Shown: positions 21,799-61,341, counted from the stretch's first letter. The stretch is 64,000 bases of DNA from an uncultured virus (IMG/VR IMGVR_UViG_3300018080_006410) (IMGVR_UViG_3300018080_006410); one strand, 5' to 3'. Program-made: numbers and translations. Notes: generated by a model not told the origin, from the sequence alone.

Positions 21799-22140
21799 TC
21801 ACCCCGACCCCCTCGCCGGGTTCGGCACAGGAGCCCCTCCGTCGCTCACGTCCCAGGACCTCACCTCGTTCGCCTCGCCCTCCAGCAGCAGGAACTCCTT
21901 GTCGCCCCCCGGTCGCCCGACGACGGCCCTCCCGTTCCTCCGCAGCAAGTCGCAGACCCTTCGGTAGGTGAGCGGCGACTCGGTCGCCACGACGTCGTCG
22001 TAGGCCACCATGGAGGACTCCAGGTCCGGCACGAGGCCGACCATGGAGTCCCACGCGTTCTTCTTCTGGGTGAAGGTCCCGCGCACGAACATGCGCCCGA
22101 CCCCGGGCATCCTCTGAGCCATGACCACAAGCCTAGCCAT
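21799..22140 (-). CDS. Hypothetical protein
   Basis: ORF coupled to ATPase stop. Confidence 0.55.
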   Translation of the reverse strand: MARLVVMAQRMPGVGRMFVRGTFTQKKNAWDSMVGLVPDLESSMVAYDDVVATESPLTYRRVCDLLRRNGRAVVGRPGGDKEFLLLEGEANEVRSWDVSDGGAPVPNPARGSG

Positions 22141-38491: not shown

Positions 38492-38707
38492 CTACTTGTC
38501 GTCCACCTTCTCCATGGCCGCGGCGAGCCCCTCGTAGTCCCTCATGAGCTCCGCCTCGTCGGCGTAAGACGTCCGGTTCTGCGTCCCCGACCTGTGCGTC
38601 ACGTGCAGCCCGCGCACGACCTCACCCTTGTTCCCCTGCGACGTCGAGACGCCAACCTCCGCCAGCTCCTCGACCCTCACCGTGAACCATTTGCCCCGAT
38701 AGATCAT
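38492..38707 (-). CDS. Hypothetical protein
   Basis: MIYRGKWFTV... Confidence 0.5.
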   Translation of the reverse strand: MIYRGKWFTVRVEELAEVGVSTSQGNKGEVVRGLHVTHRSGTQNRTSYADEAELMRDYEGLAAAMEKVDDK

Positions 38708-38880
38708 CTCGCATCTCCTTGTTCTCGCTCTCTGGCTACCGCCACCAGTCCGCAAAGCTCTCCATCCCATTCTACGTCGTCAGCGCCCTCCATGATTCGT
38801 CATGGGATTATACGCCGCCAAGGAGGAGAAGAAAGACGCGGCCTGCCCTCGGGCTCGGACCAGGGACGCGGAACGGAGGA

Positions 38881-38952
38881 TGGAGCCCCTGCCAGAATCG
38901 AACTGGCGTCTGGGCGCCACAAGTGCCCAGCTCTCCATTGAGCCGGGGACGT
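38881..38952 (-). pseudogene. Degenerate tRNA-like element (possible Thr TGT)
   Basis: D arm GCTC/GAGC, T arm GCCAG-TTCGATT-CTGGC, CCA end; imperfect acceptor and anticodon stems. Confidence 0.5.
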
Positions 38953-39058
38953 CAAGAAAGACCCCCGGGCCCACCCTTCCAACCGGTGTGGCCGCCTCCC
39001 GTGCAACTAGTATAGGAGCCGGACGTCGGAGTCGAACCGACAGGGGTCGAAAACCAAA

Positions 39059-39136
39059 TGGCCTCGAACGACAGGGCTCGAACCTGCGTCCTCCCGGAAA
39101 AAGAGCCGGGACGCTCTACCACTGAGCTACGTCGAG
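39059..39136 (-). ncRNA. tRNA-like RNA with 6-bp anticodon stem and 8-nt loop (copy 1)
   Basis: TCCCGG-CTCTTTTT-CCGGGA arm, canonical D/T arms, bulged acceptor stem, G73-CCA. Confidence 0.75.
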
Positions 39137-39143
39137 ACAAGAT

Positions 39144-39220
39144 TGGCAGGTGAGGCAGGGCTCGAACCTGCGTCCTCCCGGAAAAAGAGCCGGGACGCTC
39201 TACCACTGAGCTACACACCT
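39144..39220 (-). ncRNA. tRNA-like RNA with 6-bp anticodon stem and 8-nt loop (copy 2)
   Basis: 59-nt core identical to copy 1, different acceptor stem, G73-CCA. Confidence 0.75.
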
Positions 39221-39233
39221 GCATCCACTCCTA

Positions 39234-40676
39234 CTATACGCCCGCGGCCCGGACCTTCCGGCCCGACCCGTGAGAATTCGCGTCGGTCGCCCCGAGCGCG
39301 AAGCCGTCGCCGTCCCTGTCGACATGGAAGCCGCCGGCCGGGAGATGCTCGGCCCTGAGGGCCTTGGCCGAGAAGACCCCGGCCCTCCGCAGGGCGAGAG
39401 CCAGTCCCGGGCTCGACACGGCGACGCCGTGCACCAGCTCGGGGGTCGGCGTGAACTCCACGGCCCGGGCACGCCTCCTCGGCCCGACCCAGGACGCCGG
39501 CTCGACGCCGTGCCTCTCGCACGCGGCCACCACCATCTCCTTCGTGCACCGCTCCTTGCCCGCGACGACGTCCCACGGGTACGGAAGCTCAGCCCACACC
39601 TTGGTCCCCGGATGGACGTCGCCGCCCGAGGCCAGGTGCCAACGGACCACGTCCGCCGCCATCAGCCTCATGACCTTGCCCGGGCACAGGGCCTCAAGCA
39701 TGGAGCCCATGCCCATGGCGTGAAGCATCGACACCCAGTGGTCCCGGGCCTTGTTCCACCCGCCGGCCGACTGGTTCCACGTCGACGAGTCGCACCCGCG
39801 CCGCACCACCATCCTCTCCAGGTCGATGCCGCCGCCGGAACCCTCCCAGACCTCCGTGAGAAGGTCGCACGCGTCCTCCAGGAGACCCCACGCCCTCGCG
39901 AGCATGGCGCCCTTCTGGTAGTCCGTCAGGAGCCTCAGGACCCTGTCCACCGGATAGACGGCGGCCACGACGTCCCACCTGGCCGTGTTGGACTTGGTCA
40001 GGCGGTCGTACAGCATCTTGGCCACCACGTCGAAGGCCCGAACCTGGGAGTCGTTCGTGAAGGTGCTCCGAAGGCTCATCCTCGCGCTCATGTACGCCAC
40101 GAAGCAGGCCGTGCCCAGGTCGGCGGAGAAGTCGTCGAAGTCGATCTCCACGGCGAAGCCGCTCTTGCCGATCCGGGTCAGGACGTACTTCTTCCGCTCG
40201 CGGACCATCCTCAGGAGCTTGGACTCCATCCGGCCCAGGAGCCTGAAGCGCTTGTTGTAGGCGCGGTGCCCCATGTCGAGGCCCGCCTGCGCCCGCTGCT
40301 CCCGGTTCATCCGGTGCTTCAGGAAGTCGGACTGCCCGTAGCTCTTGCCGATGGCCGACGACACGCCCTGGACGAAGACCTCCACCCTCTCCGGGTCGAG
40401 GCACTCCTCCACCGACAGCATCGGAACGGAGAAGAGCTCGGACGCCACCTTGACCGGCTTCTCCATGCCCGTCGGGCGATGGAAGTCCGCGGCCATGGAC
40501 GAGTAGCCCAGGAGGTGGCTCCTCGTCGAGATCCTGGTCGCCTGCTTCAAGACGTTCCTCTGGGCCAGCGACAGCCGCGGAAGCAATGCCTCCAGCACGA
40601 CCTCGGCAACATCCTCCGGACGCGGACGCGTCTGAACGCACTCGTACAGCTTCCGAATCGTCTCTTCCCTCTTCAT
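39234..40676 (-). CDS. 480-aa protein of unknown function embedded among tRNA genes
   Basis: Long ORF with RBS; no motif I can assign. Confidence 0.8.
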   Translation of the reverse strand: MKREETIRKLYECVQTRPRPEDVAEVVLEALLPRLSLAQRNVLKQATRISTRSHLLGYSSMAADFHRPTGMEKPVKVASELFSVPMLSVEECLDPERVEVFVQGVSSAIGKSYGQSDFLKHRMNREQRAQAGLDMGHRAYNKRFRLLGRMESKLLRMVRERKKYVLTRIGKSGFAVEIDFDDFSADLGTACFVAYMSARMSLRSTFTNDSQVRAFDVVAKMLYDRLTKSNTARWDVVAAVYPVDRVLRLLTDYQKGAMLARAWGLLEDACDLLTEVWEGSGGGIDLERMVVRRGCDSSTWNQSAGGWNKARDHWVSMLHAMGMGSMLEALCPGKVMRLMAADVVRWHLASGGDVHPGTKVWAELPYPWDVVAGKERCTKEMVVAACERHGVEPASWVGPRRRARAVEFTPTPELVHGVAVSSPGLALALRRAGVFSAKALRAEHLPAGGFHVDRDGDGFALGATDANSHGSGRKVRAAGV

Positions 40677-40726
40677 GTCCCTGCCTCCTTTTCCCTGACG
40701 GCCGATCTCGTCGACCCGGCTTGAGT

Positions 40727-40800
40727 TGGTTCCCCCACCTGGACTCGAACCAGGACCAAAGGATTAACAGTCCTACGTGCTACCATTACACCATGGGGGA
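40727..40800 (-). tRNA. tRNA-Asn(GTT)
   Basis: Cloverleaf, loop CT-GTT-AA, CCA. Confidence 0.9.
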
Positions 40801-40803
40801 GTC

Positions 40804-40880
40804 TGGAGCCCAGAGAGGGACTCGAACCCTCGACCTGCCGATTACGAATCGGCTGCTCTTAGCCACTGAGCTATCCGGGC
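40804..40880 (-). tRNA. tRNA-Thr(CGT)
   Basis: Cloverleaf, loop TT-CGT-AA, CCA. Confidence 0.92.
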
Positions 40881-40998
40881 TTAATGCGGGCCTGCTCTCA
40901 CCCGAGTCACACCACTTCTCCTCCAGCCTGGTCGTCCACGGGTTCGTCCCCGCTCGTCGCCGGACCTTCTTCGGACAGGCAGGTGTCGCCTAAGTTGT

Positions 40999-41094
40999 TG
41001 GAGCCGATGTCTGGACTTGAACCGCCTCGACTACGCGCGCTGATCGAGGAAAACCTCCGGTTTACCCGGTGTGCTACCATTACACCACATCGGC
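40999..41094 (-). pseudogene. Aberrant Thr-like tRNA
   Basis: Perfect acceptor GCCGATG/CATCGGC and D arm; shrunken anticodon arm CCGG-GTAAA-CCGG; extra hairpin; broken T stem. Confidence 0.55.
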
Positions 41095-41105
41095 ATCTGA
41101 ATTGT

Positions 41106-41182
41106 TGGCACACCCGCTCGGGTTCGAACCGAGAACCTGCTGATTAAGAGTCAGCCGCTCTAGCCAACTGAGCTACGGGTGC
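41106..41182 (-). tRNA. tRNA-Lys(CTT)
   Basis: Cloverleaf, loop CT-CTT-AA, G73-CCA. Confidence 0.92.
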
Positions 41183-41203
41183 GAATAGACTCTCCTGTCG
41201 AGT

Positions 41204-41277
41204 TGGAGGTCCCGGCAGGGCTCGAACCTGCGGCCACGCGGTCCGAGCCGCCCGCTCTACCTCTAAGCTACGGAACC
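41204..41277 (-). pseudogene. tRNA-like element with 6-nt anticodon loop (CTCGGA)
   Basis: Good acceptor, D and T arms; loop one nt short. Confidence 0.6.
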
Positions 41278-41307
41278 TCGATCACATCTCCTTCTGTTGA
41301 ACCTCGT

Positions 41308-41344
41308 CTCCACCCTACATTGCCGAACGAGCAAGGTTTTCCAC
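41308..41344 (-). promoter_or_regulatory. Class A promoter-like motif inside tRNA unit 1
   Basis: GTGGAAAACCTTGCTCGTTCGGCAATGTAGGGTGGAG. Confidence 0.65.
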
Positions 41345-41358
41345 TCGCTCCGAATTTC

Positions 41359-41434
41359 TGGTCGGCTCGGAGGGACTCGAACCCTCGGCGTTCCGCTTAA
41401 AAGGCGGATGCTCTACCAACTGAGCTACGAGCCG
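41359..41434 (-). tRNA. tRNA-Lys(TTT)
   Basis: Cloverleaf, loop CT-TTT-AA. Confidence 0.93.
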
Positions 41435-41438
41435 TTCT

Positions 41439-41515
41439 TGGCAGGCCCGCTCGGGGTCGAACCGAGAACCGCCGGTTTTGGAGACCGGTGCTCTAGCCGA
41501 TTGAGCTACGGACCT
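41439..41515 (-). tRNA. tRNA-Trp(CCA)
   Basis: Cloverleaf, loop CT-CCA-AA. Confidence 0.93.
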
Positions 41516-41526
41516 ATCATGAAACC

Positions 41527-41602
41527 TGGTGCGACAGACGGGGCTCGAACCCGTGGCCTCCTGCTTGGCAAGCAGGTGCTCTTCCGACTGAGCTACTGCC
41601 GC
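41527..41602 (-). tRNA. tRNA-Gly(GCC)
   Basis: Cloverleaf, loop TT-GCC-AA. Confidence 0.93.
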
Positions 41603-41637
41603 AAAGAAAAACCCCCGCGCCCTTTCGGGCCGGGGGT
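41603..41637 (-). terminator. Attenuator terminator 1
   Basis: ACCCCCGGCCC-GAAA-GGGCGCGGGGGT-TTTTCTTT directly 5' of tRNA-Gly. Confidence 0.85.
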
Positions 41638-41659
41638 CTCACAGCGCGCTCGCCACCGT

Positions 41660-41743
41660 CTACGCTTGAACTCCAAGCGAAAGACCCCCGTGGGCGGGCT
41701 TGCCGCCCCAGGTATTGTCTTTCGTTGTGGTTCCCGTCAGCAT
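41660..41743 (-). CDS. Leader peptide 1 (MLTGTTTKDNTWGGKPAHGGLSLGVQA)
   Basis: 27-aa ORF between promoter and terminator; Thr/Lys/Asn/Trp/Gly codons; contains antiterminator strand. Confidence 0.75.
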   Translation of the reverse strand: MLTGTTTKDNTWGGKPAHGGLSLGVQA

Positions 41744-41767
41744 GACGTAGTTGCCTTTCGTTGCCTT

Positions 41768-41796
41768 ATTATACGCCGCTCGCCCGAATTTGCCAA
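41768..41796 (-). promoter_or_regulatory. Sigma70-like promoter of tRNA unit 1
   Basis: TTGGCA-N17-TATAAT. Confidence 0.8.
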
Positions 41797-41858
41797 GCGA
41801 CCTCTCGGTTTTTCCGACGGGGATCGAGGCCGGCCCCGGCCTGCCCGCGCCCAGGAGA

Positions 41859-41932
41859 TGGCTGCCCCGCCTGGACTCGAACCAGAACCGAGTGCTCCAA
41901 AGACACTTGTGCTGCCATTACACCACGGGGCA
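41859..41932 (-). tRNA. tRNA-Gln(TTG)
   Basis: Cloverleaf, loop CT-TTG-GA. Confidence 0.92.
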
Positions 41933-41951
41933 ATCCATGGCCGGACGGGCC

Positions 41952-42839
41952 CTAACACCCTCTGATAAAGTCCCAAAGCCCCTCCCGGTCAACATCGGCC
42001 AAGACCCTGGTGTTCGTCCCCTCCTCGACCTTCGTCCCCCACCAGCCTCCCTCCCGGTACAACCTTCCGCCAACCCAGGTCCCGATCTCGGGATGCAGAT
42101 GGCACACGGCAGCGGTCGGGTCGTGGAACTTCTTCTCCCGGTGCCTCTTCCCGTAGAGATAGAGGTCCATGCCTTCCATGAACAGCTCCATCGCCCGGCA
42201 GGAAGGCTTCCTGCGCCTCATCCACTCGTGCCTCGCCCTGTCGTACAGGATCGTGTGACAGACGTTCTTGCCGACGAACCTCAGGTCCCCGACCTTCGCC
42301 CGCGACGCCAGGAACAAGCCCTCGTCCTTCGACCCGTTCAAGTTGAAGGTAGGCACGGCCACCTTGCCCTTGAACTTGGGAAGCCTCTCGACGTCATGGC
42401 CATGAAGGTCGTATCCCAGAAAGCCACCCTGCATCGTGACCCGCCCGAACTCCCTCTCCGGATGCTCGATCATGTAGCGGCCCACGTTCTTCACCGGCCC
42501 GCAGATGAAGACGTCGCTGTCCGGATGGTCCTCGAGAACCCCGCCCAGAAGCTCGTGGCCGAAGCCGTCGGGGTCCGCCTCGGTCGGATGTCCCATCTTC
42601 CTCAGGAGCGCCATGTGGAACGACGTCCCTCCGGTCTTGACGACGCTCGTCTCCTTCGCGATCCCGACAGGGACATCCAGGCCGACCTCCGCGCAGAAGG
42701 CCCTCGCGATGGCGACCTGGTACCGGTGTCCGGGAGAGACGAGGATCGCCCTGATCCTGACACCCGCGGCGTGCAGGTGGCACAGCGTGAAGTAGTCGTC
42801 GGGATCGTGCCCGATGTCGGTTTCCACTATCAGGTCCAT
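41952..42839 (-). CDS. Nucleoside hydrolase family protein
   Basis: N-terminal ETDIGHDPDD (DxDxxxDD-like), CGPVKN, MQGG, TFNL, FHDP. Confidence 0.75.
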   Translation of the reverse strand: MDLIVETDIGHDPDDYFTLCHLHAAGVRIRAILVSPGHRYQVAIARAFCAEVGLDVPVGIAKETSVVKTGGTSFHMALLRKMGHPTEADPDGFGHELLGGVLEDHPDSDVFICGPVKNVGRYMIEHPEREFGRVTMQGGFLGYDLHGHDVERLPKFKGKVAVPTFNLNGSKDEGLFLASRAKVGDLRFVGKNVCHTILYDRARHEWMRRRKPSCRAMELFMEGMDLYLYGKRHREKKFHDPTAAVCHLHPEIGTWVGGRLYREGGWWGTKVEEGTNTRVLADVDREGLWDFIRGC

Positions 42840-43019
42840 CAATCGTCTTCCTCCATCTTCCTGCCTGCGAAAAGGTCCGTAGGTGTAAGCGCCCAGAGCT
42901 ACGGAGGCCGAGTGTTGTTGACGCAGTTTCCTCACTTCCTATCCCTTTCGGGTCTCGTTACTGCGAGAGTTTTTTGTTTTTGCGGTCCAGTTTCTCCACG
43001 TCTGGACACATCCCGAGAC

Positions 43020-43096
43020 TGGTCGGGCGGGCCGGGCTCGAACCGGCGACCTCAGCGCCCCAAACGCCGCGCGCTTCCAAACTGCGCCACCGCCCG
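43020..43096 (-). tRNA. tRNA-Pro(TGG)
   Basis: Cloverleaf, loop TT-TGG-GG. Confidence 0.93.
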
Positions 43097-43101
43097 AAAA
43101 C

Positions 43102-43178
43102 TGGTCGGGATGAGAGGATTTGAACCTCCGGCTTCCTCGCCCCGAACGAGGCGCTCTACCAGACTGAGCCACATCCCG
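43102..43178 (-). tRNA. tRNA-Pro(CGG)
   Basis: Cloverleaf, loop TT-CGG-GG. Confidence 0.93.
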
Positions 43179-43347
43179 ATAAGATGTCGCGGCCGCCGCC
43201 AGACGGAACGGGCGTCGGCGAACGGCGGCTTCGGACGTCACCCCACCACCGATTTCCGACAGTGCCTTCTTCCGAGCAATACCCGGTTGGCGCCCATCTG
43301 ATGACTTTCCCTCGCCGGTACCGGCCATCATCGCAACAAAAAACTAG

Positions 43348-43419
43348 TTGGCCCGCTCGGGATTGAACCGAGGACCCCGCAATTATGAGTCGCATGCTCT
43401 ACCGCTGAGCTACGGGCCA
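43348..43419 (-). tRNA. tRNA-Met/Ile2(CAT)
   Basis: Cloverleaf, loop CT-CAT-AA; followed by CTA rather than CCA. Confidence 0.85.
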
Positions 43420-43427
43420 TCTAAAAC

Positions 43428-43502
43428 TGGTAGCCCCAGGGGGAATCGAACCCCCGTCTCCGGGATGAAAACCCGACGTCCTTGCCACTAGACGATGGGG
43501 CC
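43428..43502 (-). tRNA. tRNA-Glu(TTC)
   Basis: Cloverleaf, loop TT-TTC-AT. Confidence 0.92.
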
Positions 43503-43567
43503 AAGTGGGACGCTTGCCCATTCACGCTTCAGGCGACGGAGTCAAACCGCTCGTCACGTCCCGATAT

Positions 43568-43646
43568 TGGTGGCGGGGGTGGGAGTTGAACCCACATGCT
43601 CCAGGTTATGAGCCTGGCGTCTTACCAAATCGACATTCACCCCGCT
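43568..43646 (-). tRNA. tRNA-Met(CAT), initiator-like
   Basis: Loop CT-CAT-AA; 1:72 mismatch (A:C). Confidence 0.8.
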
Positions 43647-43656
43647 CTCAAGTCTA

Positions 43657-43733
43657 TGGTCGGGATGGCAGGAATCGAACCTGCGACCTTCCGGCCCCCA
43701 GCCGGACGCTCTACCAGACTGAGCCACATCCCG
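43657..43733 (-). tRNA. tRNA-Pro(GGG)
   Basis: Cloverleaf, loop CT-GGG-GG. Confidence 0.92.
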
Positions 43734-43845
43734 AGTTCGGGGGAGTTTGCCGCTCCCCCAGGACTGCCGTCTACCCGCTTCTGCGCGTCTTGGAACTCGG
43801 CAAAGCCCGCGACTTGCTTTCCGGCCATATTGCAGCCCTCAATCC

Positions 43846-43920
43846 TGGCATCCCCAGCCGGACTCGAACCGGCGTCACGAGGTTGAGGGCCTCGCATCCT
43901 GGCCGCTAGACGATGGGGAC
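43846..43920 (-). tRNA. tRNA-Glu(CTC)
   Basis: Cloverleaf, loop CC-CTC-AA. Confidence 0.9.
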
Positions 43921-43934
43921 ACATATTCAATTGT

Positions 43935-44011
43935 TGGTCGGCCCAGGAGGAATCGAACCTCCGACCTAACGGTTATCAGCCGTTCGCTCTTACCAACTGA
44001 GCTATGGGCCG
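43935..44011 (-). tRNA. tRNA-Ile(GAT)
   Basis: Cloverleaf, loop CT-GAT-AA. Confidence 0.93.
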
Positions 44012-44042
44012 ACATGTTGCTCTCGCCTCTCTCCTTGACTGA

Positions 44043-44119
44043 TGGTGGGCGGTGCGAGACTCGAACTCGCAACCTTCAGCATGTCGAGCTGACGTTCTAG
44101 CCATCTGAACTAACCGCCC
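44043..44119 (-). tRNA. tRNA-Val(GAC)
   Basis: Cloverleaf, loop TC-GAC-AT. Confidence 0.9.
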
Positions 44120-44121
44120 AT

Positions 44122-44198
44122 TGGCACGCCCGGAAGGATTCGAACCTTCGACCCGCGCATTAGAAGTGCGCTGCTCGTATCCCCTGAGCTACGGGCGC
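44122..44198 (-). tRNA. tRNA-Arg(TCT)
   Basis: Cloverleaf, loop CT-TCT-AA. Confidence 0.93.
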
Positions 44199-44206
44199 TC
44201 GATATC

Positions 44207-44280
44207 TGGCTGCCCGGCAAGGACTCGAACCCTGACCGACTGGGCCAGAACCAGCTGTGCTGCCATTACACCACCGGGCA
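44207..44280 (-). tRNA. tRNA-Gln(CTG)
   Basis: Cloverleaf, loop TT-CTG-GC. Confidence 0.92.
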
Positions 44281-44286
44281 TCGAAC

Positions 44287-44362
44287 TGGTGACCACGGAA
44301 GGACTCGAACCTTCGACCATCCGGGTGTGGACCGGACGCTCCTGCCGCTGAGCTACGTGGCC
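44287..44362 (-). tRNA. tRNA-Val(CAC)
   Basis: Cloverleaf, loop TC-CAC-AC. Confidence 0.88.
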
Positions 44363-44369
44363 GTGATAT

Positions 44370-44447
44370 TGGCGGTGACGAAGGGATTTGAACCCTCGTT
44401 CTCTGCCGTGACAGGACAGCGCTTTCGGCCAACTAAGCTACGCCACC
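44370..44447 (-). tRNA. tRNA-Asp(GTC)
   Basis: Cloverleaf, loop CT-GTC-AC, G73. Confidence 0.92.
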
Positions 44448-44456
44448 GCATGATCC

Positions 44457-44534
44457 TGGGCGCCCCGACGGGACTCGAACCCGCGGCCTCCCGGGCCACG
44501 ACCGGGCGCTCTTCCTGACCGAGCTCCGAGGCGC
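44457..44534 (-). tRNA. tRNA-His(GTG)
   Basis: Loop TC-GTG-GC, G-1:C73. Confidence 0.9.
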
Positions 44535-44545
44535 ATCTGAATTGT

Positions 44546-44623
44546 TGGTGGACCGACAGGGGATCGAACCCTGGACATCCTGATTGCAAGTCAGGTGCTC
44601 TTAGCCAACTGAGCTACCGGCCC
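44546..44623 (-). tRNA. tRNA-Ala(TGC)
   Basis: Loop CT-TGC-AA, G3:U70. Confidence 0.93.
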
Positions 44624-44659
44624 GTCCTGCTCGTGACTCGCCCTCCTTCTCTCGACTCC

Positions 44660-44699
44660 AAAGAAAAACCCCCGACGCCCTTTTCGGGGTGCCGGGGGT
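44660..44699 (-). terminator. Attenuator terminator 2
   Basis: ACCCCCGGCACCCC-GAAAA-GGGCGTCGGGGGT-TTTTCTTT upstream of tRNA-Ala. Confidence 0.85.
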
Positions 44700-44716
44700 C
44701 CTTGGACCTATCAGGG

Positions 44717-44797
44717 TCAGAACACAGCACCCCCGGCACCCGCGTTCGCGGGCTGCTCGATCGCTTCGTGTCTGGCCATCGGGTTCATTGAGTACAT
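44717..44797 (-). CDS. Leader peptide 2 (MYSMNPMARHEAIEQPANAGAGGAVF)
   Basis: 26-aa ORF with AAGGAG RBS between promoter and terminator; contains 13-nt antiterminator strand. Confidence 0.8.
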   Translation of the reverse strand: MYSMNPMARHEAIEQPANAGAGGAVF

Positions 44798-44812
44798 TGC
44801 TCCTTGCCTATT

Positions 44813-44842
44813 ATCATACGCCGTCAACGCCAGTCTTACCAG
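44813..44842 (-). promoter_or_regulatory. Sigma70-like promoter of tRNA unit 2
   Basis: CTGGTA-N18-TATGAT with GGCG extension. Confidence 0.65.
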
Positions 44843-44874
44843 CCCCCTCGGAGATTTTTCCGAGAACCGGCCCG

Positions 44875-45498
44875 TCAGCCCTCCAGCTCGACGTCCCAGT
44901 ACATGGCGCCGAGGAAGTCCTCCCACGACCTGGGAGGGTCCCTCAGGATGCCACGCCTGTTGACGACGGCCCAGTGCGGCTCCCTCGGCTCCCTCAGGAG
45001 CGTCAGGCCCGCCTCCCTGGGCGTCCGGCTGTCCTTCTTGTGGTTGCACCTCACGCACGAGAGAACCAGGTTCTCCCAGGTCGTGCCTCCACCCCTGGAC
45101 TTGGGGACCACGTGGTCGATGTTGAGCTTGGAGGCCGGCAGCTTCTTGCCGCAGTACTGACAGACGTTCCGGTCGCGGGCGAAGATCGCCTTCCGGCAGA
45201 GCTTGGCCCGACGACGCCAGAAGCGGACCTTCCGGACGAGCCGGATGACCTCCGGCGCCGGGAAGGCGAAGCTCCTGGAACGCACGAGGGGGCGCCCCGA
45301 CTCGGCCATCTCCGCGGCCCTGGCCGCGTCGGACCAGCTCTCGACCCACTCCTCGAAGCCGTAGAGGGAGTAGTCATTGTCGACGACGTCGGCCTTCCCC
45401 GCGCACACCTTGCACAGGGCCCCGACCACGTTCGTCACGTCCACCGGCCTCCACGAGCCGTCAAGCACCAGGACCCGCCTGTCAAGCACTCCCGTCAT
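44875..45498 (-). CDS. HNH endonuclease
   Basis: IFARDRNVCQYCG, IDHVVPKSRGG, WENLVLSCVRCNHKK. Confidence 0.92.
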   Translation of the reverse strand: MTGVLDRRVLVLDGSWRPVDVTNVVGALCKVCAGKADVVDNDYSLYGFEEWVESWSDAARAAEMAESGRPLVRSRSFAFPAPEVIRLVRKVRFWRRRAKLCRKAIFARDRNVCQYCGKKLPASKLNIDHVVPKSRGGGTTWENLVLSCVRCNHKKDSRTPREAGLTLLREPREPHWAVVNRRGILRDPPRSWEDFLGAMYWDVELEG

Positions 45499-45601
45499 CG
45501 CCCCGCTCCTTCTCGTAGTCGTCGATCGTCACCTCGCCTCAAGCCTCGCGGCGCACCTCCTGGCCTATTGTACACCGCCAGAGGCCCGTCTTCAAAGAGG
45601 A

Positions 45602-45678
45602 TGGTCCGTCTGGTAGGGATCGAACCTACAACCTGTCGCGTATGAGACGACCGCTCTAACCAACTGAGCTACAGACGG
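45602..45678 (-). tRNA. tRNA-Met/Ile2(CAT)
   Basis: Cloverleaf, loop CT-CAT-AC. Confidence 0.9.
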
Positions 45679-45685
45679 ATAATTC

Positions 45686-45761
45686 TGGAGGACCCGGCGG
45701 GACTCGAACCCGCGACCTTCGGCTTCGGAGACCGATGTTCTTCCAACTGAACTACAGGTCC
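45686..45761 (-). tRNA. tRNA-Arg(CCG)
   Basis: Cloverleaf, loop CT-CCG-AA. Confidence 0.92.
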
Positions 45762-45768
45762 TCAAAGT

Positions 45769-45846
45769 TGGCACGCCCGGCAGGATTCAAACCTGCGACT
45801 TCCCCGTCCGTAGCGGGGCGCTCTATTCAGACTGAGCTACGGGCGC
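45769..45846 (-). tRNA. tRNA-Arg(ACG)
   Basis: Cloverleaf, loop CT-ACG-GA. Confidence 0.9.
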
Positions 45847-45852
45847 TCATTA

Positions 45853-46518
45853 TCAAAACTTCCCAGGCTCCCACCAGGAGGCCGACTTCCGGCTTTCGTA
45901 AGACCTGTCCAGCTGGTGGCCCCTGCAAAAGTCCCTGGTTCCTCTCCAGAGGTGATGCACGTAGTCCTGGACCGGGAAGTCCACCAGCATCGACTCCATC
46001 CTCTTGACCCTCAGCTCGTACATCGGCGCCACCAGCGCAAGCCCGTGGTCCGTGAACGGCTCGAACCGCCGATAGTACCCGACATGGAAGAGGCACGTCG
46101 ACGAATGAAGGTACGAAACCTTCTCGCCTCCCACCGGCCTTTTCACCGGCGCGACCGGCCCTATCCCGTACCACCTGGTCTTCCGGCCCCCGACCTTCGC
46201 CAGGGCGTCCTCCAGCAAGTTCGGCTCGTACATCTCCGTATCGCTGTCCAGCATCAGCAGCACGTCGGCCTCCGTCGCCCACAGCGCCACGTTCATCCCC
46301 GGCCCATGGCCGATGTTGGACCCCACCCGGATAAGCCTCACCCGGTTCCTCTTCGCCCATTTCCTGACGTTCCTCGGAGCGACCCCCTCGGTGTTGTCCA
46401 CCACGAAGAAGTCGATGTCCGGATAGAACCTCCTCACCGACGCCACCGCCTTCCTCATCAGGCCGTAGGTGTGATAGACGACCATCGCCGCGGCCACCCG
46501 ACAGCCCTCGATCTTCAT
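45853..46518 (-). CDS. Glycosyltransferase family 2 protein
   Basis: FVVDN, NIGHGPGMN, LLMLDSD. Confidence 0.8.
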   Translation of the reverse strand: MKIEGCRVAAAMVVYHTYGLMRKAVASVRRFYPDIDFFVVDNTEGVAPRNVRKWAKRNRVRLIRVGSNIGHGPGMNVALWATEADVLLMLDSDTEMYEPNLLEDALAKVGGRKTRWYGIGPVAPVKRPVGGEKVSYLHSSTCLFHVGYYRRFEPFTDHGLALVAPMYELRVKRMESMLVDFPVQDYVHHLWRGTRDFCRGHQLDRSYESRKSASWWEPGKF

Positions 46519-46550
46519 CAGCAACCTCCTTTGGGTTGCCCTTAACATAC

Positions 46551-46641
46551 TGGCGGAGAGCCGGGGACTCCAACCCCGAAGCCCGGTTTCCCGGACCGAC
46601 GCCGTTTCCAACGGCGCTCCTCATGCAGCCGGATGCTCTCC
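46551..46641 (-). tRNA. tRNA-Ser(GGA)
   Basis: Loop TT-GGA-AA, long variable arm; atypical T loop TTGGAGT. Confidence 0.85.
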
Positions 46642-46649
46642 TCAAAGTC

Positions 46650-46819
46650 TGAAGCCGACGGGACTCGAACCCGCATCCCGGTGCGTCCTGCCCATTCCGC
46701 AGCCCGCGTGGCTGGCCATGTCACAGCCCTTTGGACTCGCAGGCGTCACCCGTCGCGCTTGCGCCTCGACGGGCTATGCGGCGCTCCGCTCCGGCCCTTG
46801 CCATTAGGTGGACGGCCTC
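46650..46819 (-). ncRNA. 170-nt tRNA-like RNA with Ala-type acceptor and ~100-nt insert replacing the anticodon loop
   Basis: GAGGCCG/CGGCTTC (G3:U70), A73, D arm CCT-AATGGCA-AGG, T arm GCGGG-TTCGAGT-CCCGT. Confidence 0.7.
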
Positions 46820-46827
46820 ATCGAAAA

Positions 46828-46903
46828 TGGAGACGGGGGAGGGACTCGAACCCTCATGAACGCGGGTTGCAACCGCGCGCCTAAACCTCTCAGCCACCCC
46901 GCC
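46828..46903 (-). tRNA. tRNA-Cys(GCA)
   Basis: Loop TT-GCA-AC, U73. Confidence 0.92.
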
Positions 46904-46941
46904 AAAAATCTCCTTTGCTACACTGCTACACTGCTACACCT

Positions 46942-47025
46942 TGGTGCCCGAGACAGGGATCGAACCTGCACGCCTTTCGACAGCCGAACTTAAACCGGCC
47001 GCGTCTGCCATTCCGCCACTCGGGC
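46942..47025 (-). tRNA. tRNA-Leu(TAA)
   Basis: Loop TT-TAA-GT, variable arm. Confidence 0.92.
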
Positions 47026-47030
47026 CAAAT

Positions 47031-47107
47031 TGGTGGTGAGAGTCGGAATCGAACCAACGACGCCTCGGGCTTCAACCGAGTGCTCTACCGGACTGAGCTA
47101 CCTCACC
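47031..47107 (-). tRNA. tRNA-Phe(GAA)
   Basis: Loop TT-GAA-GC. Confidence 0.93.
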
Positions 47108-47185
47108 GAAAGTCCCTTCCAGTTCTGGCCGGGCGTTTGGACCCGTCGGGCTGCCAAGCCCGAGCACCGGTCGGGACACAATCTT

Positions 47186-47276
47186 TGGCGGAGAGCCGGG
47201 GAATCGAACCCCGAAACCCCGTTTCCAGGGCCTACCGGTTTAGCAAACCGACTCCTCGTCCATCCGGACGCTCTCC
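47186..47276 (-). tRNA. tRNA-Ser(GCT)
   Basis: Loop TT-GCT-AA, long variable arm. Confidence 0.9.
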
Positions 47277-47281
47277 ACTAT

Positions 47282-47458
47282 TCAAATCTCCTCGTACTTC
47301 CCCCAGAAACCCATCGGGCACGACTCTTCTGCCAACGACGCCTTTCGTCTGACGTTGCACCTCTCCACCAAGCACACCATCGCCTTGGCGTCCATCTTAC
47401 GACACGGCTTGCACCAACGGTCAAGTCGCTCGCGTATCACCGAGTTTGGCGCCCTCAC
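47282..47458 (-). CDS. Small Cys-rich protein (58 aa) inside tRNA unit 3
   Basis: AGGAGG RBS, GTG start, WCKPC...VC..RC...SCPMGFW; below ORF-track size cut-off. Confidence 0.65.
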   Translation of the reverse strand: MRAPNSVIRERLDRWCKPCRKMDAKAMVCLVERCNVRRKASLAEESCPMGFWGKYEEI

Positions 47459-47474
47459 TCCTTCCTCCTATCAA

Positions 47475-47551
47475 TGGTGCAGTGGACGCGAATCGAACGC
47501 GCGACCTTCCGCTTGGAAGGCGGAAGCTCTACCTGGCTGAGCTACCACTGC
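47475..47551 (-). tRNA. tRNA-Gly(TCC)
   Basis: Loop CT-TCC-AA. Confidence 0.92.
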
Positions 47552-47560
47552 GTCTAAATC

Positions 47561-47646
47561 TGGTGCCCGAGGAGGGAGTCGAACCCTCACCGCCTTTCGG
47601 CACTGCGGTCTGAGCGCAGCGTGTCTGCCAATTCCACCACCCGGGC
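47561..47646 (-). tRNA. tRNA-Leu(CAG)
   Basis: Loop CT-CAG-AC, variable arm. Confidence 0.92.
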
Positions 47647-47744
47647 TTGTTGCCGGGTTCTCTCCACCCGGCGAAGTCACGCCTTTGCATACCCCACAAG
47701 ACGTTAATGGGTTGCACCGAGGTTTGAAGCCCCGGTCCACATCT

Positions 47745-47835
47745 TGGCGGAGAGCCGGAGACTCGAACTCCGAAGCCCCGTTCCCGGGACCTACGCGCTT
47801 TCGAAACGCGCTCCTCATCCGGCCGGATGCTCTCC
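47745..47835 (-). tRNA. tRNA-Ser(CGA)
   Basis: Loop TT-CGA-AA, long variable arm. Confidence 0.9.
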
Positions 47836-47843
47836 ATGATTCC

Positions 47844-47930
47844 TGGTGACCCCGGGGAGACTCGAACTCCCACGCCCTCTCGGGCCCCCGGCCCTCAACC
47901 GGGGCCGTATGCCAATTCCGGCACGGGACC
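47844..47930 (-). tRNA. tRNA-Leu(GAG)
   Basis: Loop TT-GAG-GG, variable arm. Confidence 0.92.
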
Positions 47931-47943
47931 ACTGTTCAGTTGT

Positions 47944-48029
47944 TGGTGCGCCGAGATGGAGTCGAACCATCAAAGCCCGAAGGCGCCGATTTTACAGACC
48001 GGGGAGCTCGCCAAATGCTCAGCCGACGC
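47944..48029 (-). tRNA. tRNA-Tyr(GTA)
   Basis: Loop CT-GTA-AA, variable arm. Confidence 0.9.
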
Positions 48030-48091
48030 ATCTCGTCGTCGATCATCTCCTTCTCTCGATCCCGGACTCGCTATCTCGTTCCATTTGTTGC

Positions 48092-48176
48092 TGGTAGCCC
48101 AGGGGAGAGTCGAACTCCCATCCCCGAAGGGACCCGATTTTGAATCGGGCGCGTATGCCAATTCCGCCACTGGGCC
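48092..48176 (-). tRNA. tRNA-Leu(CAA)
   Basis: Loop TT-CAA-AA, variable arm. Confidence 0.92.
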
Positions 48177-48185
48177 TTTCAATCC

Positions 48186-48276
48186 TGGAGGAGGGCCGGG
48201 GACTCCAACCCCGAGACCCCGTTTCCAGGGCCTACCCGATTTCAAATCGAGCTCCTCGTGCAGCCGGTCGCCCTCC
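48186..48276 (-). tRNA. tRNA-Ser(TGA)
   Basis: Loop TT-TGA-AA, long variable arm; atypical T loop TTGGAGT. Confidence 0.85.
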
Positions 48277-48278
48277 AG

Positions 48279-48315
48279 AAACAGAAAAACCCCCGGAGGC
48301 TTTCGCGTCCGGGGG
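48279..48315 (-). terminator. Attenuator terminator 3
   Basis: CCCCCGGACGC-GAAA-GCCTCCGGGGG-TTTTTCTGTTT directly 5' of tRNA-Ser(TGA). Confidence 0.85.
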
Positions 48316-48335
48316 CCTAGGGGCTTCGACGAGCG

Positions 48336-48425
48336 TCAACGCAGCCCGGACGCAGGCGTAAGGCGGAACGAGGAATATCCCCGCCCACAACATGCCAACA
48401 TCAGGTTGCGACTCTGCTTGTCCAT
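48336..48425 (-). CDS. Leader peptide 3 (MDKQSRNLMLACCGRGYSSFRLTPASGLR)
   Basis: 29-aa ORF between promoter and terminator; Ser/Arg/Leu/Cys/Gly/Tyr/Phe codons; contains antiterminator strand. Confidence 0.8.
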   Translation of the reverse strand: MDKQSRNLMLACCGRGYSSFRLTPASGLR

Positions 48426-48493
48426 CGTCTCTCTCGGTTTGTGGGGTCCAGCCCTGGAATTGGCCAGGACCCTCACCCGTCGTCCAAAATCCC

Positions 48494-48523
48494 ATTATAC
48501 ACCCTCGGGCGCCGACTTGCCAA
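48494..48523 (-). promoter_or_regulatory. Sigma70-like promoter of tRNA unit 3
   Basis: TTGGCA-N18-TATAAT with TG just upstream of the -10. Confidence 0.8.
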
Positions 48524-48702
48524 CCCCGTCGCCGGATTTTCCCGACGTGCCTTCGGCACCTTTGTCCTCGCACTCCCGGCAGACCGTCTCGAACTCCATG
48601 AACGGGTGGCAGCTCCTGTCGCCCCGGTCCCTCGGCCCCAGATAGCCCACATCCATCATGCTCTCGATCTCGGCGCCGCACCGGGTGCAGATCAGCTGTT
48701 CG

Positions 48703-49119
48703 TCAGGCGTCATTGCTGTGCAGCCTCCCCACCAGCATCATGCCGTTCATCACGTTCTTGAGCTCCTCCTCGTCCCGGGCGCTACGGGCGAAAGCCTGGA
48801 AGCAGTCCAGGCAGTCGTGCTTCTCCTTCTGCACGGCCCGGATCGTCTCCAGGATCACGCCCCTCATGTGCTGGACGTGAGGGTTCCCCGGAGGCCCCTG
48901 GTCCCTCGCCCCCCTTCCTCTGTCCTCCGACCCCCTTCTCCTGTCCTCCGGTCCCCTTCTCCTGTCCTCCGACCCCCTCGCCCTCGGCTCCGCCTGGCCT
49001 CCCGCCTCCTGCTCCTTCCGCGGCCACCTTCTCGTGTCCTCCGCCTCCTTCTCCGGCCACTTCCTCCTGTCCTCCGACTCCCTCGCCGTCAACTCCGCCT
49101 GGTCCGCCTGGTCTGTCAT
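48703..49119 (-). CDS. Hypothetical protein with EDRRRG repeats
   Basis: Repeated SEDRRRG/PEDRRRG units. Confidence 0.5.
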   Translation of the reverse strand: MTDQADQAELTARESEDRRKWPEKEAEDTRRWPRKEQEAGGQAEPRARGSEDRRRGPEDRRRGSEDRGRGARDQGPPGNPHVQHMRGVILETIRAVQKEKHDCLDCFQAFARSARDEEELKNVMNGMMLVGRLHSNDA

Positions 49120-49622
49120 CGTCCGCTCCTTCTCCGGCCACGAAGGCCAGCTCCTTCCTCATCTCCTCAGCGTCAACCCCGGAGGAGGAGAAGCCCCCGG
49201 CCGCCAGCAGCTCCGGCGGTCGCGCGAGCCCAACCTCTCCCCGCGCCACCCCGGCGCAGGCCTCCAGGAAACTCAAGGCGGTCGCGTCGCTCTTGAAAAG
49301 CCTCGGCGTCCGCATCATCCACATGTCCAGTATGTCGGTCAAAGTGGCCTTTTCCATCTCGCCTCCGCCACCATTATACGCCTCAGCCACAGACGCACAA
49401 GATCATCCACTGCCAATCCATGTCTCTCCTTCCGTCCCGACGCTCCCGTCGCGGTAGCCGCGGAACAGCGTCCACAACCTCCCGCCGCAGGACGGGCACT
49501 CCTCGAAGGCCGCGACTTGCTCGACCACTCCTGGAACCACGTCCTTCTCGGCCGCCTCGCGCCACCGGTGCCCGCACCGGCCACACTCGTGCGTCCCGTC
49601 CCACGGAATCGTCACGGCAAAA

Positions 49623-49925
49623 CTACCGTGGGTCGTCTTCATCGGCCGCCTCCACGCTCCCGTCGTCGTGAGCCACGAACATCACCGTGACGCCGCACCC
49701 GCAACGCTCGCAGGCGTCGCAGGTCACCGCCGTCAAAATCTGCCCACGCTTAACGTTCAGCCTCCTGTGCACCCTGCGAGGCGCCACCGGCCTTCCGTTC
49801 CACCCTTCGCACGCGCACTGCCACTCGTGCTCCCCGAGCCACCGCCCCGAATCGTACTTGTCGTCCTGCCACTCCATCCGGACCACGACCGGGTCGCTCA
49901 GGTCCATGTCGTCGAGGATGCTCAT
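49623..49925 (-). CDS. Small Cys-containing hypothetical protein
   Basis: MSILDDMDL..., CACEGW, CERCG. Confidence 0.55.
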   Translation of the reverse strand: MSILDDMDLSDPVVVRMEWQDDKYDSGRWLGEHEWQCACEGWNGRPVAPRRVHRRLNVKRGQILTAVTCDACERCGCGVTVMFVAHDDGSVEAADEDDPR

Positions 49926-50278
49926 CTCTCCTCCGCCGTCGCCACGACCTCGCCCGGCAACAGCTCCCCGTTCAGCTCCAGGGCCCTCAGGTACGCGCCC
50001 CACGCCTCCGGGCCCAGCTGCCCCTCCTTCTCCAGGCAGCAGCCGGGAATCGGCCCGCCGACCCCGACGAAGCTCTCGAAGATGAAGCGCCCGCTTTCGC
50101 CGACCCTCATCGGCGTCTCCGTGGCCGGCAGCCGCAACACGCCGGGACACCGCACCTCCCCCCTCTCCCAATCCCTCGCGAAGAGGTCGAGCTGCTCGTC
50201 GTCGAAGGCGCCGGGCACGAAGGTTCTTCTCACGTACGTCAAGACGCACCCCCGGCACGTCTCCCTGTCTAGCCCCAT
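49922..50278 (-). CDS. Hypothetical protein with C-terminal GEVVA motif
   Basis: MGLDRETCRGC...LLPGEVVATAEER. Confidence 0.55.
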   Translation of the reverse strand: MGLDRETCRGCVLTYVRRTFVPGAFDDEQLDLFARDWERGEVRCPGVLRLPATETPMRVGESGRFIFESFVGVGGPIPGCCLEKEGQLGPEAWGAYLRALELNGELLPGEVVATAEER

Positions 50279-60941: not shown

Positions 60942-61236
60942 GTCGTCTCCTCCTTCCGCTCCTCCCAGACGCCCACGTCGGTGCCGCCCAGGTCCATGGC
61001 CACCAGCGCCCCGACCTCGTCCGTCGCGCATCTCGGGCATCGCTTCCGGGGACACGCCCGCAACGGGAGCCTCCTCAGCCTCCACGACTCGCCCAGCCAG
61101 CCGCACTCGGAGCATCTGACCAGCGAGACTATGTCCGAATCGTCGCCGAACAGGACGAGGCGCCTGGCCTTGACGTCATCGAGCCGGATGGCCGGGCAGG
61201 CCACGGTCTCGAACAGCGGAACCTCAACGCGCCTGG

Positions 61237-61341
61237 GCTTGCCGAGCCCGATCGGCCTCCGGCCCCGCCTGAGCTTGCCGAGCCCGATCGGCCTCCGGCC
61301 CCGCCTGAGCTTGCCAGGCCCGATCGGCCTCCGGCCGCGCC
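61237..61341. repeat. 36-bp tandem repeat (~3 copies)
   Basis: GCTTGCCGAGCCCGATCGGCCTCCGGCCCCGCCTGA, encoding RRGRRPIGLGKL on minus strand. Confidence 0.85.

Follow-up and report, generated by a model that had tools for sequence, protein, structure and literature searches.

Codon-matched leader open reading frames ahead of three phage tRNA clusters: candidate ribosome-mediated attenuators of tRNA genes

Three promoter-leader-terminator units in a phage tRNA array

The sequence IMGVR_UViG_3300018080_006410 derives from an uncultured virus in IMG/VR, and the stretch of 64,000 nucleotides (nt) analysed here in full (the window; 64 kb) is best described as part of a large uncultured phage, with a G+C content of 65% and nearly all genes on the minus strand. 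Most of its tRNA genes lie in three clusters, and a preliminary description made from the sequence alone had claimed that the same succession of promoter, short open reading frame (ORF), U-tailed terminator and tRNA cluster occurs three times on the minus strand. All three units were located (Table 1), and we ask here whether their short ORFs are leader peptides whose translation controls transcription of the tRNA genes.

By ARAGORN the window has 39 tRNA genes, and 36 of these fall on the minus strand within 40727-48176. Two further genes, missed by default ARAGORN, were detected by Rfam and a relaxed ARAGORN search: a tRNA-Ser(TGA) of type II (48189-48277, -) and a third tRNA(CAT) (43571-43643, -). 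The gene at 41204-41277 (-) in cluster 1 has a 6-nt anticodon loop (ARAGORN anticodon "???"; Rfam tRNA score 49.8 bits). Downstream of cluster 2 lie a nucleoside-hydrolase-like ORF and a tRNA-Gln(TTG) gene (41859-41932), both possibly on one transcript with cluster 2. Seven spacers of the array were folded, and two in cluster 3 (47108-47185 and 47647-47744, -) gave a z of about -3 against mononucleotide shuffles, with no recognisable structure in either.

A sigma-70-like promoter scan of 39500-50000 returned five sites against 1.1 expected, and its two top sites (11/12 matches each; 48523-48494 and 41796-41768) are the promoters of units 3 and 1. The promoter of unit 2 falls below the -35 threshold of the scan and was identified from an alignment of all three units. 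Each unit uses the extended -10 motif of the phage, GGCGTATAAT, which (at up to one mismatch) occurs 12 times in the window against 0.42 expected, always on the minus (coding) strand; most of these sites have no recognisable -35, and a TTGGCA-like -35 together with an upstream GGAAAA motif is confined to the three tRNA units. Since the sigma-70-like scan found no promoter-like site between terminator and first tRNA in any unit, the tRNAs would be transcribed solely by read-through of the terminators. A phage-type promoter, GGCGTATAGT (39233-39242), also stands 13 nt upstream of two tandem tRNA-like genes at 39059-39220 (-), without leader and without terminator; these have 8-nt anticodon loops (ARAGORN anticodon "cttt"), the acceptor stem of the first pairs poorly, and both may be Lys-type tRNAs of a non-standard kind, for instance ones that read quadruplets. 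At 38891-38944 there is a degenerate fragment resembling Thr(TGT).

In every unit the leader is the sole ORF of at least 20 amino acids (aa) that starts past the predicted transcription start and ends before the terminator hairpin, and it is a putative coding sequence with an ATG start. An in-frame GTG at 48476 would extend leader ORF 3 to 46 aa. The promoter and terminator modules are common to the three units, and the ORF parts have diverged.

The G+C-rich terminator hairpins reach -24 to -29 kcal/mol when folded alone and are followed by TTTTTCT; a 13-mer after the hairpin, CGGGGGTTTTTCT, has exactly three copies in the 64 kb, one per unit, and the U-tract ends 2, 37 and 6 nt before the first tRNA in units 1, 2 and 3, respectively. 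It had also been claimed that the 3' third of each ORF contains a perfect complement, 9-13 nt long, of the 5' arm of the terminator, and this was borne out in the last third of all three ORFs, with lengths of 9, 13 and 9 nt (the antiterminator strands of Table 1).

Table 1. Positions of the elements of the three units, of the clusters behind them, of the -10 motif and of protein genes embedded in the tRNA region
Feature	Position	Strand	Details
Unit 1 promoter	41768..41815	-	-35 TTGGCA 41796-41791, 17-nt spacer, -10 TATAAT 41773-41768, shared upstream motif
Leader ORF 1	41660..41743	-	ATG start, 27 codons + stop
Unit 1 antiterminator strand	41682..41690	-	CGGGGGTCT; ORF nt 54-62, 9 nt; length reached by 58/2000 shuffled ORFs
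Unit 1 intrinsic terminator	41603..41638	-	U-tract abuts tRNA-Gly(GCC), whose start is 41602
Cluster 1	40727..41602	-	Gly(GCC), Trp, Lys(TTT), odd 6-nt-loop tRNA, Lys(CTT), Ser(GGA), Thr(CGT), Asn(GTT)
Unit 2 promoter	44813..44867	-	-35-like TGGTAA 44841-44836, 17-nt spacer, -10 TATGAT 44818-44813, shared upstream motif
Leader ORF 2	44717..44797	-	26 codons + stop; AAGGAG Shine-Dalgarno close upstream; in-frame ATGs also at codons 4 and 7
Unit 2 antiterminator strand	44729..44741	-	ORF nt 57-69, 13 nt; length reached by 0/2000 shuffled ORFs
Unit 2 intrinsic terminator	44660..44700	-	Tail TTTTTCTTT
Cluster 2, first part	43020..44623	-	Ala(TGC), His, Asp, Val(CAC), Gln(CTG), Arg(TCT), Val(GAC), Ile, Glu(CTC), Pro(GGG)
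Cluster 2, rest	43020..44623	-	Met(CAT, Rfam only), Glu(TTC), Met(CAT), Pro(CGG), Pro(TGG)
Unit 3 promoter	48494..48545	-	-35 TTGGCA 48523-48518, 18-nt spacer, -10 TATAAT 48499-48494, upstream GGAAAA motif
Leader ORF 3	48336..48425	-	ATG start, 29 codons + stop
Unit 3 antiterminator strand	48345..48353	-	GCGTCCGGG; ORF nt 73-81, 9 nt; length reached by 30/2000 shuffled ORFs
Unit 3 intrinsic terminator	48283..48317	-	10-bp G+C-rich stem, then TTTTTCTGTTT; tRNA-Ser(TGA) begins 6 nt later
Cluster 3, before protein gene	45602..48277	-	Ser(TGA), Leu(CAA), Tyr, Leu(GAG), Ser(CGA), Leu(CAG), Gly(TCC), Ser(GCT), Phe, Leu(TAA), Cys
Cluster 3, after glycosyltransferase-2-like ORF		-	Arg(ACG), Arg(CCG), Met
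GGCGTATAAT sites	7834, 12425, 26465, 29415, 38816, 39242, 41777, 44822, 48503, 49382, 56254, 62113	-	
Weak inosine-uridine nucleoside-hydrolase-like ORF	41952-42935	-	Protein gene embedded in tRNA region
HNH endonuclease gene	44875-45498	-	Embedded in tRNA region
Glycosyltransferase-2-like ORF	45853-46611	-	Inside presumed transcript of cluster 3

Match between leader codons and the tRNAs downstream

The preliminary description held that the codons of each leader enumerate the tRNAs of its own cluster. Under wobble rules in which G34 reads C/U, C34 reads G, U34 reads A/G, A34 reads U/C/A and CAT reads ATG, leaders 1, 2 and 3 cover 6/7, 12/14 and 13/13 tRNAs of their own clusters (14/14 for leader 3 once Ser(TGA) is counted), and 2-5 tRNAs of a foreign one. 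The enumeration was therefore correct for 31/34 tRNAs and failed for two in cluster 2 and one in cluster 1. The match extends to the isoacceptor level, as had been proposed: in the codon listing AGA is restricted to leader 2, whose cluster has Arg(TCT), CGC/CGG to leader 3, with Arg(ACG)/Arg(CCG), and GGC to leader 1, with Gly(GCC), while Trp, Glu, Ile and Cys codons each occur only in the leader of the matching cluster. The same statement about His was wrong, as a CAC forms codon 18 of leader 1, inside the antiterminator strand.

Several comparisons indicated that this match is specific to the true pairing of leaders and clusters: i) among the six possible leader-to-cluster assignments the true one scores 31 and the five others 11-21; ii) when the 79 codons were shuffled among the three leaders, 31/34 was reached 8 times in 200,000, so that the permutation of own against other clusters, suggested earlier as a check, favoured the match; iii) triplets of random windows from ORFs of the window with high G+C at third codon positions (GC3) reached 31/34 in 0 of 200,000 draws; iv) a six-frame scan of the 64 kb (127,828 windows) yielded just 11 windows with complete coverage of the 13 cluster-3 tRNAs, each of them overlapping leader 3. 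By the same scan leader 2 (12/14) ranks in the top 0.5% of windows and leader 1 (6/7) in the top 3.3%.

The influence that a ribosome on the leader could have on the terminator was modelled by folding half-transcripts, in which the RNA ends at the terminator loop and the 3' arm is not yet made, with the ribosome represented as an unpaired 30-nt footprint around the A site. Without a ribosome the 5' arm of the terminator (region 3) pairs into the ORF with a probability (P) of 0.6-0.9, and the same holds with a ribosome at codons up to 14, 18 and 20 in units 1, 2 and 3, respectively. A ribosome on the antiterminator strand brings this pairing down to ~0.0-0.1 in every unit, and at the stop codon P is 0.11-0.12 in units 2 and 3. 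In units 1 and 3 the antiterminator strand can also pair with upstream ORF codons (in leader 1, codons 7-14 are the 5' strand of this hairpin), which as a 1:2 pairing completes the classical 1:2 / 2:3 / 3:4 arrangement. When the full leader of unit 2 was folded at equilibrium, P of the terminator was ~0-0.4 without a ribosome or with one at codons 1-17, and 0.93-0.97 with one at codons 18-27, which makes a clean switch. An intrinsic terminator, a maskable antiterminator and well-placed regulatory codons, three structural elements of a ribosome-mediated attenuator, are found in these units.

The folding also defines a sensing zone, that is, the codons at which a ribosome leaves the antiterminator free in the half-transcripts. 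Taken alone and with Ser(TGA) included, this zone covers 29/35 own-cluster tRNAs and 1-4 foreign ones, and shuffles reach this once in 200,000. Codons read by the unit's own cluster make up 32/49 inside the zone and 9/30 outside it (Fisher p = 0.0023), and 11/13, 13/17 and 14/19 of the zone's residues in the three leaders belong to own-cluster isotypes. Moreover, GC3 in the zone is 0.72 as against 0.88 in the phage genes (5,461 of 100,000 gene windows are as low): the zone uses the rare codons AAA, AAT, AGA, GAA, AGT, TGT, TAT and TTG, which are decoded by the own cluster, several of them via G34 wobble. The codon-matched layout is real and statistically supported.

A number of observations weigh against control by a translating ribosome. 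i) The Shine-Dalgarno pairing of leaders 1 (-3.2 kcal/mol) and 3 (-5.1 kcal/mol) is no better than that of random positions, and leader 2 (-7.3 kcal/mol) is the only gene-like one (median of 34 genes, -8.0 kcal/mol). ii) A ribosome at the stop codon leaves the antiterminator of unit 1 unmasked (P = 0.68), so that regions 1 and 2 would have to re-pair behind it. iii) At equilibrium the terminators of units 1 and 3 persist for every ribosome position (P at least 0.70, mostly ~0.95); the predicted alternation of terminator and antiterminator states was therefore recovered at equilibrium in unit 2 and not in units 1 and 3, where any switch must be kinetic. Kinetic switching is accepted for the trp attenuator. 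iv) Within the sensing zones, 17/49 codons are unread by the unit's own cluster, and some, namely GGA (leader 1), TCA (leader 2) and GCA (leader 3), are served by a different cluster. v) In a test free of any ORF definition, in which the 300 nt upstream were searched in all frames for the best stop-free window of 25 codons and the result was compared with random 300-nt segments, cluster 3 gave p = 0.003, cluster 2 p = 0.21 and cluster 1 p = 0.38, and leaders 1 and 2 taken singly are not compelling. Therefore the case rests on the predefined ORFs (those set by promoter, ATG and terminator), on the between-leader shuffles and on the sensing-zone contrast.

The weak Shine-Dalgarno sequences of leaders 1 and 3, the dominance of their terminators at equilibrium and the non-significant tests of clusters 1 and 2 would also suit promoter-terminator cassettes that make small RNAs, or terminators that are simply leaky; the ORFs would then be untranslated, their codon content incidental, and the tRNAs would come from constitutive read-through or through a processive antitermination factor of the phage. 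We consider this improbable, as it leaves unexplained the cluster-specific match (8 and 1 of 200,000 shuffles), its concentration in the sensing zone, the presence of a 13-nt antiterminator inside an ORF and the recurrence of the layout with matching codons in unrelated phages.

Similar layouts in other phages and surroundings of the array

That recurrence was found by scanning IMG/VR for a generic terminator tail shortly before a tRNA D-arm motif, which gave at least 120 loci; among the 120 listed, 49 had no tRNA at the motif, 38 had one, eight two, five three and 20 four or more. Leaders were called by a rule blind to tRNA content (the first ORF with an ATG start and 15 or more codons that stops 25-75 nt ahead of the motif), and among the 20 loci with at least four tRNAs the rule gave one candidate in 18, two in one and none in one (incomplete upstream). 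Compared with random coding windows of the same locus, own coverage was significant (p < 0.05) in 10 loci out of the 17 that had a usable null, each null pool being small (2-10 long ORFs per locus): p = 5e-5 for L039, L040, L081 and L097, 0.003 for L034, 0.010 for L091, 0.014 for L072, 0.017 for L098, 0.018 for L099 and 0.023 for L094, with non-significant values for L043, L059, L079, L090, L092, L093 and L095. For example, in L091 (a 597-kb contig) the leader MKTMNLNTINNLNTLTVVNNTLCIRLTCYGGGIVV stands ahead of Val, Leu, Ile, Leu, Arg, Asn, Cys and Thr, and in L099 the leader MMNRNANTFIVIPSTPRWCGCFCGST stands ahead of Trp, Pro, Cys, Met and Thr. In 10/19 loci the last 45 nt of the ORF include a stretch of 8-9 nt complementary to the terminator 5' arm (shuffle p < 0.05).

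One AT-rich phage family, whose leaders begin MKTLxLHT, accounts for 14 of the 20 loci. In nine non-redundant members tRNA presence in the contiguous array and leader codon presence agree in 106/198 cells, a value reached in 442 of 20,000 permutations of leaders among the nine loci; the covariation of leaders with array content that had been suggested as a check is thus detectable, yet modest and confounded by relatedness. Within the family AGTTAGGGG, GTTAGAGG, GTCAGGGT, AGTTAAGGG and AGTTAGAGG each stand opposite a matching terminator arm, and since the complement changes with the arm, this is covariation supporting the antiterminator. In L034, L039, L059, L079, L081, L090, L092, L093, L095 and relatives, a conserved gene for a 151-aa protein and a promoter, without a leader, split the array before Glu/Thr. 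Second leaders were sought in the ~550-nt gaps inside the IMG/VR arrays and rejected, as the gaps contain protein genes and a promoter instead.

The family also bears on whether the short ORFs are functional small proteins that precede tRNA clusters by coincidence. They do start with ATG and lie behind real phage promoters. On the other hand, the three peptides of the window are mutually dissimilar despite paralogous flanks and read as lists of the amino acids of the downstream tRNAs, and the MKTLxLHT leaders keep their N-terminus and the antiterminator-encoding part only, the rest of the leader not being kept; a protein function is therefore the explanation to which we give least credence.

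A blastn search with one member of the family led to the cultured Cellulophaga phage phi4:1 (NC_021788.1), which has two such units sharing a 38-nt promoter-region repeat. In the first, an unannotated ORF at L143 5869-5937 (MKIQRLHLQELEQPIISGGTGV), followed by a terminator, stands ahead of Pro, Glu, Gln, His, Leu, Leu and Arg; in the second, the gp075 region (L143 6793-6912) stands ahead of Ala, Lys, Ile, Gly, Met, Asp, Thr, Val, Arg, Met and Tyr. Gp075 is annotated as a hypothetical protein with a TTG start, which falls inside the predicted promoter; we assumed a GTG start, after which the peptide reads QLTKTGITVIDKTKGARAYLGDTVIG. The two leaders cover 7/7 and 8/10 tRNAs of their own clusters and 4/10 and 2/7 of each other's, a match reached by 186 of 200,000 between-leader shuffles.

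Against a general role of such units, roseophage DSS3_MAL1 has no terminators before its clusters and no codon match, and T5 has many short ORFs among its tRNAs and no clear attenuator; papers of the 1980s on the T5 tRNA region reportedly discussed short ORFs there. The Cys-rich ORF T5.070 before a tRNA-Cys was considered as a leader and set aside, as it resembles a zinc-ribbon protein. The device of leader, terminator and array is recurrent but not universal. On balance we lean towards regarding codon-list leader peptides as a widespread, so far undescribed class of phage regulators, in which the ribosome would serve as a multiplexed sensor of tRNA supply gating the block that relieves the shortage.

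No homologue of the array itself was found, which is also a weak point of the proposed control. Specifically, megablast and blastn against 50,697 phage records gave no homologue (blastn matched scattered tRNA genes only); IMG/VR scans, each anchored on one of four proteins encoded nearby, recovered no relative that carries a tRNA array (two of the four had no confirmed match, and the others returned 24-43% identical loci without tRNAs); a metagenome scan gave 13 loci, none with tRNAs; and a scan for a high-GC terminator plus tRNA gave six loci, none related. The stretch is present in full in five DNA runs (sediment and seawater metagenomes) and in no RNA run among the runs listed. One sediment run contained low-depth variant pieces over leaders 1 and 3, one of them with one other letter and two gaps in ~330 nt and the other with five other letters in 145 nt.

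Elsewhere in the window, the encoded proteins include an NAD-dependent DNA ligase, a CobT-like protein, an intein-bearing ATPase and HNH endonucleases. Intein-splicing and LAGLIDADG domains interrupt an ATPase/terminase-like protein in the 858-aa ORF at 22140-24716 (-). A ~40-nt tandem direct repeat lies within a coding region at 61240-61340 (-), and a tRNA-Ala(GGC) reported there by ARAGORN (61194-61279) overlaps it and is probably false.

Proposed mechanism and relation to known systems

Overall, the three units are likely to be ribosome-mediated (leader-peptide) attenuators that tie transcription of each tRNA block to the decoding speed of its codons. What is established is the anatomy of the units, their complementary strands, the codon match and where the matched codons stand; from these we infer translation of the leaders, a kinetic coupling and a response to tRNA supply along the following lines. 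The phage promoter would start the transcript, and the first 26-29 codons would be translated. Smooth passage of the ribosome to the leader end would cover the antiterminator strand (in unit 1 it would instead let this strand re-pair with upstream codons), so that the terminator forms and transcription stops. A ribosome slowed at any upstream codon, most of which are read by tRNAs encoded just downstream, would allow the antiterminator strand to pair with the terminator 5' arm, and the cluster would be transcribed. As the antiterminator is predicted to form without a ribosome, the default state would be ON. Such a circuit would act as a demand-driven negative feedback: under a low charged-tRNA pool or early in infection the block would be made, and once phage tRNAs accumulate the leader would be read fast and transcription switched off. 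On the attenuator model, each leader would follow the logic of an OR-gate.

A switch set without the ribosome, either by T-box-like codon-anticodon pairing of uncharged tRNAs or by an RNA-binding protein, could exploit the same features, as the leader RNA shows many triplets complementary to downstream anticodons and an alternative pairing exists. An Rfam cmscan of 38500-49500 (E up to 1) returned tRNAs and sub-threshold chance matches, with no T-box, no other known leader family and no match to the curated Trp, His, Thr and Leu operon leader models. Furthermore, the matching triplets lie in one continuous ATG-to-stop frame before the terminator in all units and analogues, which is expected for decoding and not for RNA-RNA pairing, and we judge a ribosome-free switch very unlikely.

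If the units are leader-peptide attenuators, a further issue is what they were selected for. They might chiefly be counter-defence sensors, as the preliminary description proposed, in which host anticodon nucleases (PrrC, RloC, VapC, PARIS) or other defences that deplete tRNAs would stall the leader ribosome and thereby induce replacement tRNAs. The anatomy is compatible with this, since loss of any listed tRNA would stall the ribosome. Barth et al. 2021 reportedly link cysteine-responsive short ORFs to the toxin VapC4, which is said to cleave a tRNA, the small ORFs sensing the cleavage. According to PMC10264068, phage tRNAs can replace host tRNAs cleaved by defence nucleases. Nothing in the window, however, points to defence specifically; many leader codons are simply rare A/T-ending ones, as fits plain sensing of codon supply in a genome of 65% G+C; AT-rich phages whose tRNA sets are quite different have the layout as well; and plain supply-and-demand feedback accounts for an identical anatomy. 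Defence as the chief selective force thus appears rather unlikely. The other rivals (cassette or leaky terminator, ribosome-free switch, small protein) do not explain the cluster- and zone-specific match or its recurrence.

To our knowledge the regulation of phage tRNA genes is essentially undescribed. The debate on why phages carry tRNAs sets codon compensation against escape from tRNA-targeting defences, and has had no regulatory handle so far. The preliminary description knew of no case of tRNA genes controlled in this way, and likewise we found no account of tRNA genes under leader-peptide attenuation in the full-text literature searched, older papers on the T5 tRNA region being outside that search. 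If the mechanism holds, i) ribosome-mediated attenuation would extend to tRNA genes, beside the amino-acid operons and synthetase genes already under such control; ii) the ribosome would directly measure the product of the regulated genes; iii) the leaders would be a record of how the phage groups its tRNAs into functional units and of the codons that it expects to become limiting in the host; iv) the device would automatically answer tRNA-cleaving host defences; and v) three independently tuned tRNA sub-pools would be possible in one phage. A further use of such elements could be as small, programmable reporters of tRNA availability. As Cellulophaga phage phi4:1, which is in culture together with its host, has the layout too, the idea is directly testable.

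Among the systems to which the units can be compared, those of other phages (L039, L081, L091, L098, L099 and others; phi4:1), which are apparently unpublished, share the promoter, the codon-matched ORF with the antiterminator in its 3' end, the terminator and the array; they differ in having no sequence homology to the units of the window, in being AT-rich, in usually having one leader per array and in their longer leaders (22-52 codons). T-box riboswitches of Gram-positive bacteria likewise couple tRNA status to terminator read-through upstream of translation-related genes, but bind one uncharged tRNA directly via a specifier codon and a conserved T-box sequence, with no need for translation; as noted above, the Rfam scan gave no ground for taking the units as T-boxes. 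In mycobacteria, cysteine-responsive short-ORF attenuators (bioRxiv 10.1101/834739) similarly rely on codon content to make ribosomes report on one amino acid; these are bacterial, respond to that single amino acid, are often leaderless and control operonic protein genes. The pheST operon of E. coli, with its pheM leader, also has a leader-peptide attenuator that governs a translation component and responds to charged tRNA, whereas its sensing is limited to one amino acid and its target is a synthetase instead of tRNA genes.

The closest classical parallel in logic is offered by the amino-acid operons. Leader-peptide attenuators are known from the trp, his, leu and pheA operons of enterobacteria, and multivalent ones from thr, ilvGMEDA and ilvBN. 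The attenuation model is reviewed in PMC1183508. These operons share with the phage units a promoter-proximal short ORF with regulatory codons, an intrinsic terminator ahead of the genes, and antiterminator and terminator hairpins that exclude each other. As is predicted for the phage units, a stalled ribosome favours read-through there, and one leader can sense several amino acids. Unlike the "superattenuation" of trp, the antiterminator is predicted here to form without a ribosome (default ON). Moreover, amino-acid operons use runs of one to three amino acids, whereas the phage leaders list 5-13 isoacceptors, mostly once each, and the regulated genes are tRNA genes rather than those of biosynthetic enzymes. 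The signal would therefore be the decoding capacity that the operon itself supplies, giving a direct feedback loop.

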